NCBI RefSeq assembly: GCF_001465295.1
Contig: NZ_CP011034.1
Location: 1,560,001-1,592,000 of the forward strand
Source: Pseudoalteromonas translucida KMM 520
Lineage (GTDB): Bacteria; Pseudomonadota; Gammaproteobacteria; Enterobacterales; Alteromonadaceae
Length of the DNA stretch: 32,000 bases
Direction: 5' to 3'
Part shown: piece after piece, positions 13,416 to 22,075 of the stretch
How the letters are laid out: the number at the start of each line of letters is the position of its first letter
Numbering within the stretch: the first letter of the stretch is position 1
Notes under the pieces: model-generated
The model's input: the letters and a program-made list of their open reading frames with translations, nothing else
Database searches by the model: none
What the model was told of the DNA's origin: nothing
Position numbers and translations under genes: made by a program

Positions 13416-15206
13416 TTATGTGTTTTTTGCTTGTTCTTGCTGCAATTGCCACATTTGTGCATATTGGCCGTTAAGGGCTAGCAACTCAGAATGTGTGCCT
13501 TGCTCAAGTAGCTCACCTTTATGCAATACTAAAATATTATCGGCATCAATTATGGTTGATAAGCGATGGGCAATCACTATGCTGGTATGGTTTTGTGTGA
13601 CAGCGCGCATAGCCGTTAAAATAGCTTGCTCGGCATGCGAGTCAAGGGCTGAGGTGGCTTCGTCAAAAATTAAAATAGGCGATTTTTTTAAGATTGCGCG
13701 GGCAATGGCTATGCGTTGTTTTTCGCCGCCCGACACTTTTAAACCACGCTCGCCTACTAAGGTTTTATCGCCTTTATCAAGGCTGTTTATAAACGCTGTT
13801 AAATGCGCCATAGCAATGGCTTGATCTATTTCGGCCTCGCTGGCTGTTGGCCTGCCATAAGCAATGTTTTCGCGTATTGAGGTATTAAATAGCACGGTAT
13901 CTTGCGGCACTATGGCTATAGCTTGGCGTAAACTGTGCAAAGTTACGGTGTTTATAGGTTGCTTATCTATAGTGATATTACCTGACGACACCTCATAAAA
14001 ACGATACAAGAGCCTAGCTAATGAGCTTTTCCCTGCGCCACTTGCTCCGACTATTGCTACTTTAGTACCGGGTTTTACGCTAAAGCTAACATTGTTAAGA
14101 ATAGGGCGGTTAGCATCGTAACTAAAGCTTACATTGTTAAAGCTCACTTCACCTTTAGTGAGGGTAAGTAGCTGTGATGCAGGGGTGTCGGTAATTTGTG
14201 GTTTTTTGTTGAGCAGCCCAAGCATGTTTTCAAGGTCGGTAAGGGCGCGTCTTATTTCGCGATATACAAAGCCTAAAAAGTTAAGCGGTAAAAACAGTTG
14301 GATCATATACGCGTTTATCATTACGAGTTCACCAATGCTAAGTGTACCGGTTACTACTTCGCTTGAGCCTAGCCACATAAGTGCGGTAATGGCGCTGGCT
14401 ATAATTAACGCCTGCCCGGAGTTTAGTGCCAATAACGACATGCGGTTTTTTAATCGGGCTTTTTCCCAGCGCGCTAAAAAGGTGTCGTAGGTGCTGGCTT
14501 CAAACTCTTCATTGTTAAAGTATTTTACTGTTTCGTAGTTTAATAAGCTGTCGATAGCGCGGGTATTACTTAAGTTGTCGGCGGTGTTAGCTTCGCGAAT
14601 AAAGCGATTTCGCCACTGAGTTACGGTTACTGTAAAGGTAATATATATGGCAACGGCAAGTAGGGTTATAAGCGCAAACCAGATAGAAAACAAAGTGCCA
14701 AAAATTAATGCCACGGTAAGAATTTCAAATAGAGTAGGGACAATGTTAAACATTAAAAATCGCATTAAAAAGCTCAAACCGCTGGTGCCACGCTCTATGT
14801 CGCGGCTTATGCCACCGGTTTGCCTATCTAAATGAAAAGCCAGTTCAAGCGAATGCAAATGCTTAAACACTTTTAGGCCTATATCGCGCATGGCATGCTC
14901 GGTAACTCGCGAAAAAACCGCATCGCGTATTTCACCTAAAAATACACTGGCAAAGCGCAGCGCACCGTACATAATAAGCAGTAGGGTAGGTATAAAAAGC
15001 ACAGGGTGAATAGACTTATCAACGCTATCAATAATTTCTTTTAGTGCCCACGGCATAAGTAAAGTAGCGCCTTTAGCGCCTACCAACGCCATAGCTGCAA
15101 TAAAAACTCGCCCTTTAAATTGTGTTATATACGGCCAAAGTGTTTTTATACTTTGGCGCAGGTTCATTGCGTCGGGGCGTTTTACTGAGCTTTGTTTAGA
15201 GCGCAT
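13416..15206 (-). CDS. ABC exporter, fused permease/ATPase (Atm1/HMT1-like)
   Basis: N-terminal 6-TM exporter domain. Walker A GASGAGKSS, signature VSGGEKQRIAIARA, Walker B ILIFDEATSALD, H-loop IVIAHRLST. Confidence 0.9.
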   Translation of the reverse strand: MRSKQSSVKRPDAMNLRQSIKTLWPYITQFKGRVFIAAMALVGAKGATLLMPWALKEIIDSVDKSIHPVLFIPTLLLIMYGALRFASVFLGEIRDAVFSRVTEHAMRDIGLKVFKHLHSLELAFHLDRQTGGISRDIERGTSGLSFLMRFLMFNIVPTLFEILTVALIFGTLFSIWFALITLLAVAIYITFTVTVTQWRNRFIREANTADNLSNTRAIDSLLNYETVKYFNNEEFEASTYDTFLARWEKARLKNRMSLLALNSGQALIIASAITALMWLGSSEVVTGTLSIGELVMINAYMIQLFLPLNFLGFVYREIRRALTDLENMLGLLNKKPQITDTPASQLLTLTKGEVSFNNVSFSYDANRPILNNVSFSVKPGTKVAIVGASGAGKSSLARLLYRFYEVSSGNITIDKQPINTVTLHSLRQAIAIVPQDTVLFNTSIRENIAYGRPTASEAEIDQAIAMAHLTAFINSLDKGDKTLVGERGLKVSGGEKQRIAIARAILKKSPILIFDEATSALDSHAEQAILTAMRAVTQNHTSIVIAHRLSTIIDADNILVLHKGELLEQGTHSELLALNGQYAQMWQLQQEQAKNT

Positions 15207-15343
15207 GAGTGATCTCGGTTTTTATAGTGGGTATAAATTGCTGTGAATTTAATTTTGCGTAAAACTAAATACTTAATTTGACTATTGTATTTTAAATAGC
15301 TGCCCTTATATACTAGTAACCCTTAATTAAAGTTTGAAAATTA

Positions 15344-15850
15344 ATGTTTAAATTTCGTTTGTTTTTAACTGCATTTTTGCTTATTACTGCACTTTTTAGT
15401 GCATGTAGCGAAGCCGCGCCAGTTAAACAAGATTTAAACACTGCAAATTCCACTTTAATATCTACTGCTTTTTCAGCAGAAAATTTCTTATTAGATGCTA
15501 CTTCATTAGGTAATGTTTCATTAGACATAAGTCATCCCTCCATATTAGTTAAAGTATTGCATGCTAAACAACAAACTAAGCCTGATAAAACAGCGTTTGC
15601 GGCACTGCAATCTAGGCTAACTGCCAGTAATTCATCGTTGTTTTTATTTAGTGCGCAAACCGAGCCTGAATACGATGTTATTTATGAGTTTTTTATTCAT
15701 ACGCTTGCAAGGCAGTTTTATTTACAACCTAAAGCTATAAACACAGCACTACCTTGGTACACGGTTGTTTCTAATAGTAAAAAGTCTCGTATTAGTGGCT
15801 GGAAAGAAGCTAATTTACTTTACAGGGCTACCAACACTCACCACGCTTAA
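15344..15850 (+). CDS. vemP: VemP-like secretion-monitoring translation-arrest peptide (168 aa) upstream of secDF
   Basis: N-terminal signal peptide MFKFRLFLTAFLLITALFSAC. The C-terminus SRISGWKEANLLYRATNTHHA resembles the Vibrio VemP arrest motif as I recall it (HRISGWKETNAMYVALNSQFSA). It sits immediately 5' of secD-secF, as vemP does. Confidence 0.6.
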   Translation: MFKFRLFLTAFLLITALFSACSEAAPVKQDLNTANSTLISTAFSAENFLLDATSLGNVSLDISHPSILVKVLHAKQQTKPDKTAFAALQSRLTASNSSLFLFSAQTEPEYDVIYEFFIHTLARQFYLQPKAINTALPWYTVVSNSKKSRISGWKEANLLYRATNTHHA

Positions 15851-15851
15851 T

Positions 15852-15954
15852 TTCCTTATTTAATAATTAATAGGTTTTAACTTTTAAAGTTTTAACTTGC
15901 AGATTAATTGTGCTTTTTAAAAGCGCTTATCAGCTAGTTGCTGATAGTAAGGAA
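15852..15954 (+). promoter_or_regulatory. candidate anti-SD/SD pairing controlling secD translation
   Basis: UUCCUUA (15852..15858, 2 nt after the upstream stop) is the exact complement of UAAGGAA (15948..15954), which contains the secD Shine-Dalgarno. The pairing extends to 9 bp with one G-U. A local hairpin lies at 15927..15947. Confidence 0.4.
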
Positions 15955-15959
15955 TAACA

Positions 15960-17798
15960 ATGTTGAGTTTTAAAAAAAATAAAAAGCCGTTTATGGCTAA
16001 GTTTAAATTAAGCACCTTTGCTATGTTGGTGGTATTACTGCTATTGGCAATAAGTGCGTTACCTAATTTATATCCAAACCAGTCATGGTTGTATGTTAGC
16101 GCAGCCCCACACAGCGAAATACAAACACCCCCGAGCACCAATACCCTAGTTACATTTTTAAATGAGCAAGGCTTAAATGTGGCGCAAGCGTATGAGTCGC
16201 AAGCAACAATAAATGTGCTGCTTAACGAGCCCACAAAAAGTGCCCAGGCACAAGCGGCTATAAAAGCGCAATATGCAAATACTCAGACCAAAATTGTGGA
16301 GCGAGCTACCAGCCCAAACTGGTTACAAAGCTTTGGACTTTCGCCAATAAAATTAGGCCTAGATTTAAACGGTGGGGTGCTATTTGTACTCGATGTAGAT
16401 TTAGATAAAGCCATTGATGAGCAATTAGTGAGTGCGTATCAGCAAGCTAAATCAATCATAATTAAGCAAAAGGTACATGGGGTAAAAGCGCTGCAAACTC
16501 AAACCGGATTTGTAATAAATGCTCTACCTAATGCAGCTGATAAATTACCCTCTGTTATTAAAGAACTACAAAGCCGCTTTGCTAACTTAGCCGTAGTAAC
16601 AAACAATAATGGCACAGTTAAAACGGCGCAATTTAGTTACTCAGAGCAAGGGCGTAGCGCGTTTGATAAAGAAGTAATGAGCCAAACCCTCACAACGCTA
16701 CGTTCGCGAATTGAAGAGCTGGGCATAACCGAAGCGGTAACGCAGCGCCAAGGTAAGCAGCGCATTCGTATAGAATTACCCGGAGTGCAAGATCCTACCG
16801 AGGCGAAACGCATTATTGGCGCAACGGCATCACTGGGGTTTTACCAATTAAAAGCTGTGGGTGGGCAAACCTTTAATTTACAGTCGGGGGGTACTATAAA
16901 ACTTGACCCAGTGCCAATTTTTACTGGTGAGCATATTAATAACGCTCATGCTGGGCGAGACGATTGGAGCAAACCACTAGTGCAGTTAAGCCTTGATAGC
17001 CAAGGCGGCGATGCTATGTCGGCATTTTCTAAAGCTAATATAGGTAAACCTATGGCAACGGTTTATTCAGAGTATTCTCAAAATGCAAAAGGAGAGGTAG
17101 TAAAAAAGAGCGAAGTTATTAATGTAGCCAATATTGCTCAACACTTAAGTTCGCGTTTTAGCATAACCAATATGCAAAGCCCACAAGCCGCGGCCGACTT
17201 AGCGCTACTGCTACGTGCAGGCTCGTTAAGTGCGCCGGTTACTATAGTGCACGAACAAACCATAGGGCCAAGCTTAGGCAGCGAGAATATAAATAACGGC
17301 TTAGCCGCCCTAATGTTAGGTATGGGTATTACTTTGGCATTTATGGCTATGTGGTACAGACGGTTAGGCTTAATTGCAAACGTAGCACTTATTTTAAATT
17401 TAACCTCGTTAGTGGGCTTAATGTCGTTATTGCCAGGGGTAGTGCTTACGCTTCCCGGTATTGCCGGATTGGTGCTAACCATAGGTATGGCAGTAGATAC
17501 CAACGTAATAATATTTGAACGTATAAAAGAAGAGCGCCGTAAAGGCCGCGCGCCTTATCAAGCTATTGAGCAAGGATATAAGCAAGCATTTGGCACTATT
17601 TTTGATGCCAATATTACCACTATGATCACTGCACTTATTTTATACGGTATAGGTTATGGGCCCGTGAAAGGCTTTGCAATTACTTTGGCGCTGGGTTTAG
17701 TAACCAGTATGTTTACTGGCGTGTATGTATCGAAAGTGTTGAGCCAGAGTTTGTATTTAAAATTGGATAAAAAAAGCGGAGTAAGTACAGATGCTTAA
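15960..17798 (+). CDS. secD: protein translocase subunit SecD (probable second paralogue, no yajC upstream)
   Basis: N-terminal TM followed by LPNLYP, a large periplasmic domain, and a C-terminal 5-TM block with GPSLG and GIAGLVLTIGMAVDTNVIIFERIKEE. Confidence 0.9.
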   Translation: MLSFKKNKKPFMAKFKLSTFAMLVVLLLLAISALPNLYPNQSWLYVSAAPHSEIQTPPSTNTLVTFLNEQGLNVAQAYESQATINVLLNEPTKSAQAQAAIKAQYANTQTKIVERATSPNWLQSFGLSPIKLGLDLNGGVLFVLDVDLDKAIDEQLVSAYQQAKSIIIKQKVHGVKALQTQTGFVINALPNAADKLPSVIKELQSRFANLAVVTNNNGTVKTAQFSYSEQGRSAFDKEVMSQTLTTLRSRIEELGITEAVTQRQGKQRIRIELPGVQDPTEAKRIIGATASLGFYQLKAVGGQTFNLQSGGTIKLDPVPIFTGEHINNAHAGRDDWSKPLVQLSLDSQGGDAMSAFSKANIGKPMATVYSEYSQNAKGEVVKKSEVINVANIAQHLSSRFSITNMQSPQAAADLALLLRAGSLSAPVTIVHEQTIGPSLGSENINNGLAALMLGMGITLAFMAMWYRRLGLIANVALILNLTSLVGLMSLLPGVVLTLPGIAGLVLTIGMAVDTNVIIFERIKEERRKGRAPYQAIEQGYKQAFGTIFDANITTMITALILYGIGYGPVKGFAITLALGLVTSMFTGVYVSKVLSQSLYLKLDKKSGVSTDA

Positions 17799-18732
17799 TT
17801 ATTTTTTAAAAGGCGAAACCGGCACACGCATGCGTTTTATGGGCTTGGTTTTAAGTACAGTATTAGTATTGCTATCGGTAGTAACATTGGCGCAAAAAGG
17901 GCTTAATTTTGGCCTAGATTTTACCGGTGGTTACTTAACAGAATTTACGACTAGCCAAAGTATTGAGCTAGAGCAGCTTAAAACTTTTATAGCTAAAAAC
18001 CACAACGGTGAGTTTGAACTAACAGCACAAGGGAATAACCATTTTCAATTAAGAGAAGCGCCGGCTATTAACCAATCTGCGAATAATAACAGCAACGATT
18101 GGCAAAGTGCGGTAACACAAAGCACCGATATAAACGCCACGGTATTATCATCGGCTTACATTGGCTCGCAGGTGGGTGATGAGCTATTTGAGCAAGGCTG
18201 TTTGGCATTATTAGCTGCTATGGTTGCAGTAATGCTGTATTTAGCGATAAGGTTTGAATGGCGTTTAGCAGTAGGCTCTGTGGTTGCCTTAACACACGAC
18301 CTAATATTGGTGCTGGGTTTGTTTTCGCTATTACAGCTTGAGTTTAACTTAACCGTTTTAGCCAGTTTACTAGCAATTATAGGCTACTCACTTAATGACT
18401 CCATAATTGTTGGCGACAGAGTACGTGAGTTATTAAGAGTTAAATTAAATGCCAGTATTAGCGTATCTAGCATTATAAATAGTGCGATTAAAAGCACCCT
18501 AACGCGTACCATAATTACCTCAGGCACTACCTTAGCCACAGTAGCAAGTGTGTGGCTATTAGCTGGTTCACCGCTACAAGGCTTTGCTATTGCGTTATTT
18601 AGTGGCATTGTTGTGGGTACATTTTCATCTATTTGCATTGCAGCCACCTTGCCCGAGCTAATGGGATTAAGTGCTAAAAACTACGAAGTGAAAATAGATA
18701 GCCAAAGCCAAGCGCTCATGGATATGCCATAA
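17791..18732 (+). CDS. secF: protein translocase subunit SecF
   Basis: GLDFTGG and SLNDSIIVGDRVRE motifs and a 6-TM layout. An 8-nt overlap with secD indicates coupling. Confidence 0.9.
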   Translation: MLNYFLKGETGTRMRFMGLVLSTVLVLLSVVTLAQKGLNFGLDFTGGYLTEFTTSQSIELEQLKTFIAKNHNGEFELTAQGNNHFQLREAPAINQSANNNSNDWQSAVTQSTDINATVLSSAYIGSQVGDELFEQGCLALLAAMVAVMLYLAIRFEWRLAVGSVVALTHDLILVLGLFSLLQLEFNLTVLASLLAIIGYSLNDSIIVGDRVRELLRVKLNASISVSSIINSAIKSTLTRTIITSGTTLATVASVWLLAGSPLQGFAIALFSGIVVGTFSSICIAATLPELMGLSAKNYEVKIDSQSQALMDMP

Positions 18733-18839: not shown

Positions 18840-19316
18840 ATGAACAAAGCCCACGTTATTGAACACCTTAAGTTTGCCCTAGAGGCGCAGCTTACCACCG
18901 CAAAAGTGGCCGCTAAAACAGCACACGACACCGCCACGCACGAAGAAAACATAGCAGAAAATAAATACGATACTCTAGGGTTAGAGGCCGCTTATTTAGC
19001 CCAAGGCCAAGCGCAGCGCGTAAACGATTGCTATAAAAGCATGGAATTATTTAAGCCAATATTTAATCAGCCAGCCAGTAGTAAAATAGCCATTGGCTCG
19101 CTAGTGTGTCTAGAGGATACAAATGAGCAGCAAAAATGGTTTTATTTAGGCCCAAGCGCAGGCGGATTAACCGTAGAGGTTAAAGGTTTAACGATTGCCG
19201 TTGTAACCCCCGGCGCCCCCCTAGGTAAGCTGTTATTAAATAAACAACTCGATGATGGCATAAGTTTAACCATTGCCGATGTAAAGCACGATTATGACAT
19301 TGTAGAAATTTTATAA
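18840..19316 (+). CDS. GreA/GreB-family-like protein (Rnk-like, 158 aa)
   Basis: N-terminal helical region with ENKYDTLGLEAAYLAQGQAQR. The C-terminal beta-rich region (IAIGSLVCLED..., VVTPGAPLGKLLLNKQLDD) resembles the Gre C-terminal domain. This is recognition by recall only. Confidence 0.55.
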   Translation: MNKAHVIEHLKFALEAQLTTAKVAAKTAHDTATHEENIAENKYDTLGLEAAYLAQGQAQRVNDCYKSMELFKPIFNQPASSKIAIGSLVCLEDTNEQQKWFYLGPSAGGLTVEVKGLTIAVVTPGAPLGKLLLNKQLDDGISLTIADVKHDYDIVEIL

Positions 19317-19382
19317 AATATTGGTTGTAAGCAAAGCTCATTTAAAAAACCACAAAACTTATTTATTCCCCCTCATTTTATT

Positions 19383-19418
19383 GTCGGATGGCGTGGCTTC
19401 GTCACTTATCCGACCTAC
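19383..19418 (+). repeat. REP element A (GTCGGATGGCGTGGCTTCGTCACTTATCCGACCTAC)
   Basis: Imperfect palindrome with a terminal CTAC (GTAG on the other strand). The architecture is close to the enterobacterial REP/PU consensus. 35/36 identical to 21946..21981. Confidence 0.85.
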
Positions 19419-19434
19419 TTCAATGTTTTATTGT

Positions 19435-19463
19435 GATTGCTATAAAAGCATGGAATTATTTAA
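19435..19463 (+). repeat. 29-nt exact direct copy of coding sequence 19026..19054 (GATTGCTATAAAAGCATGGAATTATTTAA)
   Basis: Identity read directly. It lies in the 47-nt spacer between REP A and REP B, and it explains the CYKSMELFK peptide shared by two track ORFs. Confidence 0.9.
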
Positions 19464-19465
19464 AC

Positions 19466-19495
19466 GTAGGTCGGATAAGCGAAGCGCCATCCGAC
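19466..19495 (-). repeat. REP element B (GTAGGTCGGATAAGCGAAGCGCCATCCGAC), inverted relative to A
   Basis: Reverse complement of the A-type stem with a shorter loop. With its flank (19453..19494) it is 39/42 identical to 21857..21898. Confidence 0.85.
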
Positions 19496-19892
19496 AAAAA
19501 GCACCATCACGATAATATTTTGCAGGATAATTAAGCAGACACCCATCTTAATATTTGCAATTTCAGCATGCCGGGTTCAAACATGAAGTGGATGTCATGT
19601 TAAAGATTATGTTAAATATTTAAATCCCACATTAAATCTTTAATAAAACATTTATCATCATCGACTCTACTACCGATAAGTTGTATTACACGCTATACCT
19701 ACTACACTTATCAATCGAAAGCATCAATACATACAGGGAGCAACTCTGGTTTACATCGACGTACATCGGCGGTTCAGAATGTGACTGATGTTAAGTTGTA
19801 ACTATCATCGGTAGAGGCTTACATTAAGACTCTGTCGTTATTTATTTTACTGAAGATGCGTCCAACCAGGTACGCATAAAAGGAAAGAGATT

Positions 19893-20333
19893 ATGACCAG
19901 TTCTTATACAGGTGGCTGCGAACACGTTCATATTAAAGCTAAAGCTGAGCCAATCGATAATCATGTTTGTCACTGTAATGTTTGTAAGGGCGTGACAGGC
20001 CAGCAGAGTACGCATGTGGCGTTCTTCAAATACACAGATCTGTCTGCCGATCACCCTGAAAAAATAAAGCGTCAGCCGTTCAATAAGGACAACCCAGAAG
20101 GACCACTTGAGCTTTGTAGCTGTACTGATTGTGGCGCTGCACTAATGCTTGATGATAAACAGAAACGCATTCGTGTTGCCGTGCCAAATGTTATGGGTTA
20201 CAAAGAAGCAACGTTTCCTAAGGCCACATATCACGCATTCTACGACACATCAAAGGGCTACCCCAAACCATCCGACGGTCGTCCGGTTTATGAAGGGTTG
20301 CGTCCTGAATTCGCTTGGCCTGAACCTGCTTAA
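19893..20333 (+). CDS. GFA-family protein (glutathione-dependent formaldehyde-activating / CENP-V-like Zn-binding fold)
   Basis: Diagnostic Cys clusters CHCNVCKGVTG and CSCTDCGAAL. AAAGGAAAGAG RBS upstream of the ATG. Confidence 0.75.
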   Translation: MTSSYTGGCEHVHIKAKAEPIDNHVCHCNVCKGVTGQQSTHVAFFKYTDLSADHPEKIKRQPFNKDNPEGPLELCSCTDCGAALMLDDKQKRIRVAVPNVMGYKEATFPKATYHAFYDTSKGYPKPSDGRPVYEGLRPEFAWPEPA

Positions 20334-20630: not shown

Positions 20631-21063
20631 TCAATTTAAATATGACTGTGCGTTCAGTAATAATAAGTTTTTAGTGGGCTGTTGGACAATATCCATCCGT
20701 TTACGCATTAAGTCACTAACAGCTCTAAGCTTGCGTGGATATATGTAATTTTCAGGGAGTATATTTAAGCGTAACATTTCACCCAACCAGCGGACATCAC
20801 TATGATCGTCAGCATGTTTTAAGCCTGAATATTGTTGGATTGCAGCGAGATTCGCTAAATATATTTTAAACTTTGCATCCATTAATGCATCAACGAGCCT
20901 ATACCAATTAAATGTTGATTCAACAACAATTTCTGTTAGCTTGTCTTTATAGGGGATAAAAAAGACAAAATGACAGACACGTCATTATTTAAACGCGTTG
21001 CTCATTAATGATAGCAATAACATTATTATTTGAATGTAAGTCAATTCCACCATATAGCTTCAT
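20631..21063 (-). pseudogene. IS110-family transposase remnant (N-terminal DEDD/RuvC-like domain only, frameshifted and truncated)
   Basis: The - strand ATG at 21063 reads MKLYGGIDLHSNNNVIAIINEQRV then a stop. A shifted frame resumes PYKDKLTEIVVESTFNWYRLVDALMDAKFKIYLANLAAIQQYSGLKHADDHSD...LRLNILPENYIYP. The gene ends after about 140 of the expected ~340 aa. Confidence 0.75.
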
Positions 21064-21869
21064 ACTAAGCTCCTCGATATACTGTTTATGTTTTGCTCAA
21101 CACAACTGTATTGAAAAACACTAGGAGCTTTCTATATGGTTATAAATATTTAACTTTTGTAAATTAGAGTGTTGAAAGCACACAGACTTTATCTTATCTA
21201 TGAGAAACGTTTAAGGCAGCGAACTCTAATAGCGCATTTTACATTCCTACTCTTATTGGTCAAAAATTAAAATGTCAGAGAGCGTTTTAGATTGGAATAC
21301 ATCAATAAATGAGATCAAGATATAGAAACGGTGCTTTGGGCATCTAGGCTTAATTATAAAATTAGATCAAGTATTATGGGTTGCATCTCATCTGGAGTTC
21401 ATAAATGAAAAGCAGACACCGCGACCTGGATGTGTAGTTTTTGAAGATGATAGTTTATTGGCTGTCACAGCACTAGACGGAATAGTCTGTATACATAAGC
21501 GCTCAATGTTCTCTTTGCCTGTATAATAGAAACTAAGAAACGAGAGATTTGCTAGAGTGAAACTTTGTTATATTGGAACTCGGTCATAATTTTTGTGTTA
21601 AGCTAAAAATTAAATATCTAAAACACAGTCTAATTACTCTTCAAAATAGATGATTAACCGCGTCAATGTCTGGAACCAATTATGTATAGGCATTGTCTAG
21701 TTTTTTGTAGCCTTTAATATATTATTATAAAATTTTAGCAGGTTGTTTTCATTTGGAAACCCGCCCGCCTTTGGTTTTTGTTAATTTTCGAAATTTTCAG
21801 GGCTTAGGTTCAATCGCTTCATAAACATCCTTTAAATTTACACACCGCGATTATCTGAATCGTTTAAAT

Positions 21870-21898
21870 GTAGGTCGGATAAGCGAAGCGCCATCCGA
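21870..21898 (-). repeat. REP element C (same type and orientation as B)
   Basis: GTAGGTCGGATAAGCGAAGCGCCATCCGA, 29/29 identical to B. The similarity extends 13 nt upstream (GAATNNTTTAAAN). Confidence 0.85.
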
Positions 21899-21945
21899 AG
21901 AGCCAAGTTAAGGTTATAAACTCTTACCGTACCCATAAATTATGT

Positions 21946-21981
21946 GTCGGATGGCGTGGCTTCGTCACTTATCCGACCTGC
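21946..21981 (+). repeat. REP element D (same type and orientation as A)
   Basis: GTCGGATGGCGTGGCTTCGTCACTTATCCGACCTGC, with one change (CTGC for CTAC). It is separated from C by 47 nt, the same spacer length as A-B. Confidence 0.85.
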
Positions 21982-22075
21982 ATCAATAATTTTCATCTTC
22001 ACGCTAAAAATATCTCGTTTGTTAGTTTATCAAAAAGGCCTTATAAAGCAGATGTGGTTTAGGATTACCTAAACT

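Follow-up and report, generated by a model that had tools for sequence, protein, structure and literature searches.

A predicted VemP-family secretion monitor encoded upstream of secD-secF in Pseudoalteromonas translucida KMM 520

Known secretion monitors and the P. translucida leader

Work by Ishii and co-workers from 2015 is said to deal with VemP of Vibrio alginolyticus and with the vemP-secD2-secF2 operon. VemP is the monitoring substrate of this operon (Su et al. 2017; Miyazaki et al. 2020); its arrest segment reads HRISGWKETNAMYVALNSQFSA, and the arrest occurs with Gln156 in the ribosomal P site (Su et al. 2017, PMC5449182). Here we analyse an open reading frame (ORF) encoding 168 amino acids (aa) in a stretch of 32,000 nucleotides (nt), referred to as the window, of the Pseudoalteromonas translucida KMM 520 genome (contig NZ_CP011034.1; window position + 1,560,000 = genome position). 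The ORF is followed by secD and secF in the same orientation, with a gap of 109 nt to secD, and with a probability of roughly 0.8, as judged from comparison of sequences, it represents the VemP family in P. translucida and controls translation of secD-secF in the same operon. Motif, signal, spacer, synteny, conserved pairing and published class all agree with the original prediction, made from the letters of the window, of a VemP-type monitor that acts through sequestration of the secD Shine-Dalgarno (SD) sequence.

The likeness to the V. alginolyticus system includes a small secreted protein encoded directly upstream of secD-secF, a long spacer, a C-terminal core R-I-S-G-W-K-E-x-N-x-x-Y-x-A-x-N with all five ribosome contacts of the Vibrio protein, and a secD ribosome-binding site that is sequestered in mRNA structure beside the arrest site (predicted here). 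The two systems differ in the tail, which is T-H-H-A-stop here vs S-Q-F-S-A-stop in Vibrio and one residue shorter here, and in the intergenic distance (109 nt here vs 164 nt in Vibrio). Escherichia coli SecM-secA has the same logic, i.e. export-sensitive arrest that exposes a downstream SD sequence, as would apply at the present locus, but there the target is secA, the motif is FxxxxWIxxxxGIRAGP and the lineage is another one. A secreted leader upstream of secDF is also found in the class uDF_RQH_Enterobacterales, represented by Alteromonas naphthalenivorans (RGPP), which is marine and belongs to the GTDB Alteromonadaceae like Pseudoalteromonas; arrest was shown to induce secDF2 by opening an SD-masking stem-loop (Fujiwara et al. 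2024). The R-G-P-P motif of that leader (RAPP-like) is unrelated to the helical WK..N..Y class, and the two are not homologous. We rejected the RAPP-like (RQH) class for the P. translucida ORF: there is no proline in its last 30 residues, hence no R/Q/H-[AG]-P-P-type motif.

In Fujiwara et al. 2024 (Nat Commun 15:2711; PMC10987492) the VemP class comprises those sequences that MMseqs2 clusters together with V. alginolyticus VemP and that pass a filter for an RxxxWKxxNxxY-like motif and for a localisation signal. The portion of their table used here, to which all statements on it refer, lists the same ORF (GCF_001465295.1, PTRA_RS07465, WP_058373289.1, 168 aa, 1575344..1575850) as class 'VemP / uDF_VemP_Enterobacterales'; the signal is placed at 1-20, the WKEAN motif at 153 and the arrest site at 166 (W+13, i.e. 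13 residues after the motif Trp, assigned by alignment), and 109 is given as the intergenic distance. The ORF shares its MMseqs2 cluster with V. alginolyticus VemP in this table. The published coordinates 1575344..1575850 and 1575960..1577798 correspond exactly to the window ORFs. This portion holds at least 164 VemP-class rows, at least 86 from Vibrionaceae and at least 78 from other families (at least 49 Alteromonadaceae, 22 Shewanellaceae, four Moritellaceae and three Psychromonadaceae), and the ORF stands beside many Pseudoalteromonas, Colwellia, Shewanella, Psychromonas and Moritella entries. That a VemP switch occurs in a non-Vibrio genome had been taken as new; since the ORF is listed as VemP, as are many other non-Vibrionaceae entries, that claim fails. 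The ORF was correctly recognised but is not new: its family is known, and it had been catalogued as a member. A mechanism paper still describes the VemP operon as 'specifically conserved among Vibrio species' (PMC11470409), and literature searches combining VemP with Pseudoalteromonas, Shewanella or Colwellia gave no main-text discussion of a non-Vibrio VemP among the top-ranked matches.

With VemP outside Vibrio already on public record the scientific gain is small. For annotation, VemP-family secretion monitor is a suitable name for the 'hypothetical protein' PTRA_RS07465, and translational regulation can be assumed for secD-secF. The catalogue is purely bioinformatic with respect to VemP and, in the portion used here, holds no analysis of RNA structure in the intergenic region, of the T-Y-H-[S/A]-stop tail or of His166. 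The residual value lies in three points that are undiscussed in the literature searched, namely this tail, the natural His166 variant and the comparative evidence for a stop-adjacent anti-SD, and these could guide the choice of homologue for toeprinting or cryo-electron microscopy (cryo-EM).

The leader peptide and its conservation

The product of the ORF, MFKFRLFLTAFLLITALFSAC...SKKSRISGWKEANLLYRATNTHHA, matches a hypothetical protein from P. translucida with 100% identity. Its C-terminus reads SRISGWKEANLLYRATNTHHA; codon 166 is CAC at 15839-15841 and is followed by His167, Ala168 and the UAA stop, so that the length of 168 aa and the position of His166, two codons ahead of the stop, are as originally given. 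The Vibrio arrest segment as originally given matches the sequence in Su et al. 2017 (PMC5449182) letter for letter. For alignment with authentic VemP we used full-length V. alginolyticus VemP (WP_017819886.1), with the supplementary table of Fujiwara et al. 2024 as sequence source. BLASTP aligned only RISGWKEANLLYRATNT with RISGWKETNAMYVALNS, i.e. the last 17 residues within the arrest segment, with 11/17 identical and an expectation value (E) of 9e-6, which bears out the resemblance initially noted. The class motif RxxxWKxxNxxY (Fujiwara et al. 2024) is present as R149-I-S-G-W153-K154-E-A-N157-L-L-Y160. According to cryo-EM, Vibrio VemP contacts the ribosome through R139, W143, K144, Y150 and N154, and the corresponding residues R149, W153, K154, Y160 and N164 are all present in the window protein.

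Sixty close homologues, all from Pseudoalteromonas, have a nearly invariant C-terminus. Among 30 distinct Pseudoalteromonas tails, R149, S151, G152, W153, K154, A156, N157, L158 and Y160 are invariant in all 30, while these residues use between two and six synonymous codons each, and selection therefore acts on the peptide and not on the RNA. His167 is present in 27 of these tails and UAA is the stop codon in every one. A single TAC-to-CAC change at 15839-15841 gives His166 (tails from loci L001-L033).

A profile built from Pseudoalteromonas sequences only was searched against 1.84 billion representative proteins (cut-off E ≤ 1e-3). Only 137 representatives (50% identity) matched; 107 of them have the strict motif, in nearly all cases at the very C-terminal end. 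The profile recovered proteins with tails of the Vibrio and Enterovibrio types, for example HRISGWKDGNTLYVFLNTQYA and HRIAGWKESNLLYRFISQADA, with E between 1e-4 and 1e-5, and the VemP-like family forms a small, coherent group. Of the 107 motif-bearing representatives, 96 have their last residue at W+14 or W+15 (with the stop codon at W+15 or W+16), and members outside Vibrionaceae typically end with T-Y-H-[S/A]-stop. A genome scan gave 80 related loci from Pseudoalteromonas, Colwellia, Paraglaciecola, Psychromonas, Kangiella, Moritella, Enterovibrio, Vibrio and others, and secD and secF are located immediately downstream in 77. At two loci, L050 (a Colwellia metagenome-assembled genome) and L064 (Gilvimarinus), the motif ORF is present and no secD was detected within 4 kb downstream.

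The N-terminus has a basic n-region (K3, R5) and a hydrophobic core (residues 6-19) as judged by eye; together with the SignalP-6.0 signal 1-20 published for the same ORF (in the portion of the table used here) this agrees with the cleavable signal peptide noticed at first inspection. We also looked for the VemP-family arrangement of an N-terminal Sec signal and a spacer of more than 30 aa before the arrest site, and found a spacer from signal to arrest site of 146 aa (family median 133). Close homologues in P. translucida and P. nigrifaciens strains (P0004-P0043) are 163, 168, 173, 178, 183 or 188 aa long, where the differences are due to the copy number of a 5-aa (15-nt) SLDAT/SLDTT repeat in the spacer (window ~15483-15530); the window carries the short form. 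This variation agrees with the published view that monitors of the Sec-signal type place no constraint on spacer length.

Conservation of the protein is focused on the last 21 residues and one mid-segment, and the remainder is variable and tolerates expansion of the 5-aa repeat. Within the mid-segment, 18 Pseudoalteromonas homologues share R91, L101, P108, Y110, E115, F116 and F117 without exception. In Vibrio VemP a short hydrophobic segment, with Arg-85 three residues further on, constitutes the cis elements for regulated release of the arrest (PMC11470409). MAFFT pairs SLFLFSAQTEPEY of the P. translucida mid-region with SVALFNSQRWTSY of Vibrio VemP, placing the hydrophobic LFLF (99-102) and S-A-Q opposite Vibrio (V)ALF-N-S-Q; the alignment of this region is of low confidence, and the mid-region may match the translocon-contacting hydrophobic segment of Vibrio VemP.

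Ala20-Cys21 (15401-15406) makes Cys21 the first mature residue after the predicted cleavage, and LFSA|C resembles a lipobox. A lipobox at this position is possible; Cys21 is confined to the translucida/nigrifaciens clade and other Pseudoalteromonas have Gln there. The possible lipobox in the signal peptide and the fact that no Pfam or NCBIfam family is assigned would fit an ordinary exported protein or lipoprotein with a periplasmic role of its own, for which the proximity to secDF and the RNA complementarity described below are incidental. We consider this very improbable: conservation is centred on the C-terminal residues and the mid-segment, the linkage to secDF is retained in nearly all loci of the genome scan, the anti-SD pairing is conserved, and the only two copies in 32 kb of the 7-mer involved are the two arms themselves.

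Predicted intergenic RNA structure and modelled geometry of a stalled ribosome

In the vemP-secD spacer, TTCCTTA at 15852-15858 is exactly complementary to TAAGGAA at 15948-15954. The coordinates and the exact complementarity of the UUCCUUA/UAAGGAA pairing were thus correct from the outset, while its distance from the stop codon is a single nucleotide (15851) and not two. The two arms are the only occurrences of this 7-mer on either strand of the window, and the chance of finding such a 7-mer within 15 nt after the stop is ~1e-3 (calculated from a shuffled frequency of 5.09 per 64 kb). Folding of the RNA 15830-15975 gave a minimum free energy (MFE) of -35.9 kcal/mol (z -4.24), and none of 200 shuffles was as stable. 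In the predicted structure an 8-bp helix (15852-15859/15947-15954) closes a multiloop with three hairpins, and the outer pairs connect codons 165-167 (15836-15845) with the secD start region (15961-15968).

The AAGGAA-type SD and the ATG are conserved among the Pseudoalteromonas loci. In ~28 of the 32 distinct intergenic regions from Pseudoalteromonas, the MFE structure has the SD base-paired to a U/C-rich element that starts 3-13 nt past the first base of the stop codon. The spacers vary between 73 and 140 nt and have two or three differing inner hairpins, and the closing helix persists. The arms are UUCCUUAU/AUAAGGAA here, UUCUUCC/GGAAGAA in a second clade and GACUUCCUUC/GGAAGGAAGUC in a third; since they differ between clades, the pairing has been maintained through sequence change outside the SD core. 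In a duplex test, where pairing was compared with mononucleotide shuffles (threshold p ≤ 0.05), 17 of 31 Pseudoalteromonas regions were stronger than their shuffles, with the window at -9.1 vs -4.8 kcal/mol (p 0.03), and the test was also significant in Paraglaciecola and one Vibrio. No stop-adjacent anti-SD was found by this test in the Colwellia-type loci (L038-L063, Colwellia and relatives; spacers 127-522 nt), and therefore either a stop-adjacent anti-SD is not universal in the family or the secD start calls in these loci are imperfect.

A scan of the whole window against Rfam gave no match, i.e. the intergenic structure corresponds to no described RNA family. No sigma-70 consensus site was found in a promoter scan of 15100-16100. 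Terminator-like matches are located outside the spacer, at 15151-15177 (in the ABC transporter gene) and 15465-15479 (in the vemP-like ORF), and the inner hairpins all lack a U tail of the terminator type; attenuation of transcription between vemP and secD was dismissed since such matches occur only outside the intergenic region.

By analogy with Vibrio VemP, the N-terminal signal peptide would direct the nascent chain to the Sec translocon while residues ~148-166 (RISGWKEANLLY...) in the exit tunnel would cause elongation to pause near codon 166. When export is efficient the chain would be pulled, the pause released and translation terminated at 15848-15850, after which the intergenic RNA would refold such that UUCCUUAU (15852-15859) pairs with the secD SD (15947-15954), and the secD start region with codons 165-167, keeping secD-secF translation low. 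When export is poor the ribosome would remain stalled, covering 15836-15845 as well as the start of the anti-SD arm, and the closing helix would open and allow initiation on secD.

To model this geometry the front edge of the ribosome was set at +12 to +15 nt, and the probability of the SD being unpaired, P(unpaired), was obtained from constrained partition-function folding. With the P site at codon 166 the front edge reaches 15851-15854, so the outer helix is fully covered together with at most three bases of the 8-nt anti-SD arm. It had been proposed that a stalled ribosome would cover the anti-SD, which is only partly right because the front edge (~15851-15854) reaches the first few bases of the arm (15852-15859). 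P(unpaired) is 0.02 in the free RNA and 0.66 with codon 166 in the P site and a +15 nt edge; one codon further on it is 0.66-0.90 and for a terminating ribosome 0.82-0.90. The geometry is equally tight at a Vibrio locus (L079), and therefore tightness may be shared family-wide and need not speak against function.

Several observations weigh against the ORF being a VemP-type monitor that arrests at codon 166. Only nine of the 15 specified positions of the experimentally defined Vibrio motif HRIxGWKETNAMYVxLNxx (quoted in PMC7897499) are identical in the window ORF: in place of Vibrio H138, T146, A148, M149, V151 and L153 it has S, A, L, L, R and T, respectively, and two of the changed residues, V151 (Arg here) and L153 (Thr here), matter in Vibrio. 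His166, the predicted P-site residue, is present only in P. translucida and close relatives (1/30 distinct tails), with Tyr in the other 29. In the mid-region, Thr106 stands opposite Vibrio Arg-85, which is needed for regulated release, with the invariant Arg91 upstream instead, as far as the low-confidence alignment allows. As to the geometry, with the conservative +12 nt edge P(unpaired) at codon 166 is only 0.06, and in the P. lipolytica-type group a 10-bp helix is not opened by a W+13 stall with either front edge (P(unpaired) 0.00). Moreover, arrest as such, the exact codon, export-driven release and the effect on secD would apply to a non-Vibrio member by homology only.

These points bear on where the ribosome would stop. 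A VemP homologue could stall at another step, with His167 or Ala168 in the P site or during termination on the invariant UAA; the non-Vibrio clade would then use a different chemistry near the peptidyl-transferase centre and the same anti-SD helix would still regulate secD-secF. We regard this as unlikely, though the non-Vibrio majority ends with T-Y-H-[S/A]-stop vs N-S-Q-F-S-A, at the near-constant distance from the Trp given above, and His167 and UAA are kept in most or all Pseudoalteromonas tails. The equivalent of N154, which in Vibrio silences the peptidyl-transferase centre according to cryo-EM work, is not kept in most Pseudoalteromonas sequences. A ribosome one or two codons further on is also predicted to open the SD helix better (0.90 and 0.82-0.90 vs 0.06-0.66), and the 10-bp helices in the P. 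lipolytica group respond to these later positions only. However, the spacing from the Trp to the arrest site and the residues that touch the upper tunnel agree with those of Vibrio, which speaks for an identical register; the alignment of Fujiwara et al. 2024 assigns W+13, in the portion of the table used here; and the fixed tail length is equally explained by a set distance of the anti-SD from a W+13 stall.

We likewise hold it doubtful that the non-Vibrio majority, this ORF included, constitutes a mechanistically distinct subclass with a later stall or a stall at termination. Such a subclass may have kept the R...WK..N..Y module at the tunnel constriction, with the Vibrio L-N-S-Q/F module replaced by T-Y-H-[S/A]-UAA of invariant length. 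If so, a later stall position would fit the location of the anti-SD helix better, and the natural Tyr166-to-His variant would be a ready probe of the module near the peptidyl-transferase centre.

The exposure of the SD predicted for a terminating ribosome (0.82-0.90) also fits a decayed or non-arresting VemP relative with ordinary translational coupling and no secretion sensing, where each ribosome terminating at 15848-15850 briefly melts the anti-SD helix and secD output tracks vemP translation. In keeping with this, six of the 15 arrest-important Vibrio positions are changed and Tyr166 is replaced by His in this clade only, and non-arresting mutants of another secDF leader were still partly induced via transient opening of the stem (Fujiwara et al. 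2024, PMC10987492). Yet the motif is under strong purifying selection as an amino-acid sequence, genus-wide and beyond, and this is difficult to account for unless the nascent peptide has a function. The ORF has also kept its signal peptide and a spacer exceeding 30 aa, and the close strains sampled retain the entire tail despite the variation in the spacer repeat; we find coupling of this kind quite improbable. The preferred reading remains an export-sensitive VemP-type arrest that controls secD-secF.

Gene context and neighbouring elements

The features of the locus are collected in Table 1. Scans against Pfam and NCBIfam assigned no family to the vemP-like ORF, and neither library has a curated VemP model. 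One criterion for the VemP family is a target that is a second, conditionally expressed SecDF paralogue (SecDF2) beside a constitutive, Na+-driven SecDF1. SecD of the window is 37% identical to V. alginolyticus SecD2 over the N-terminal 399 aa and 46-50% identical to vemP-linked SecD from Vibrio loci. The secF ATG at 17791 gives an overlap of 8 nt with the end of secD (17791-17798), and because of this overlap secD and secF are likely to be translationally coupled or co-translated. A GreA/GreB-like ORF is the next gene after secF.

Table 1. Features of the vemP-like-secD-secF locus (window coordinates)
Feature	Position	Strand	Description and basis
vemP-like ORF	15344..15850	+	168 aa, ATG start, TAA stop; RefSeq PTRA_RS07465 / WP_058373289.1; predicted Sec-monitoring arrest peptide
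Signal peptide, residues 1-20 (MFKFRLFLTAFLLITALFSA)	15344..15403	+	Predicted; inspection, and SignalP-6.0 '1to20' in the portion of the Fujiwara et al. 2024 table used here
Conserved mid-region R91-LTASNSSLFLFSAQTEPEYDVIYEFF	15614..15694	+	Conservation among homologues, MAFFT
Arrest-motif equivalent S148-H166 (SRISGWKEANLLYRATNTH)	15785..15841	+	11/17 identity to Vibrio VemP; predicted P-site codon His166, 15839-15841
His167-Ala168-UAA	15842..15850	+	Predicted A-site codon, last codon and stop; H-[AS]-stop tail kept in the non-Vibrio clade
Anti-SD arm UUCCUUAU	15852..15859	+	Paired with 15947-15954 in MFE and centroid structures
Three inner hairpins of multiloop	15864..15946	+	RNA fold; 15864-15906, 15910-15926 and 15928-15946
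secD SD region (G)UAAGGAA	15947..15954	+	5 nt before the ATG at 15960
secD	15960..17798	+	612 aa; proposed regulated target; Pfam SecD_1st, SecDF_P1_head, SecD_SecF_C; NCBIfam secD
secF	17791..18732	+	313 aa; strong family matches (Pfam, NCBIfam)
ABC transporter gene	13416..15206	-	Upstream of the vemP-like ORF, divergent

Further downstream two pairs of palindromic elements resembling repetitive extragenic palindromic (REP) sequences, 19369-19500 and 21857-21992, share the core GTAGGTCGGATAAGCGAAGCGCCATCCGAC, have arms that are 89-94% complementary and bracket ~2.4 kb. The bracketed stretch includes a Cys-rich ORF of 146 aa (19893-20333) and, on the minus strand, a fragment of 83 aa (20631-20882) that appears transposase-like as judged by eye only. 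Between the first pair of arms, at 19435-19463, there is a perfect 29-nt copy of the interior of the GreA-like gene (19026-19054).

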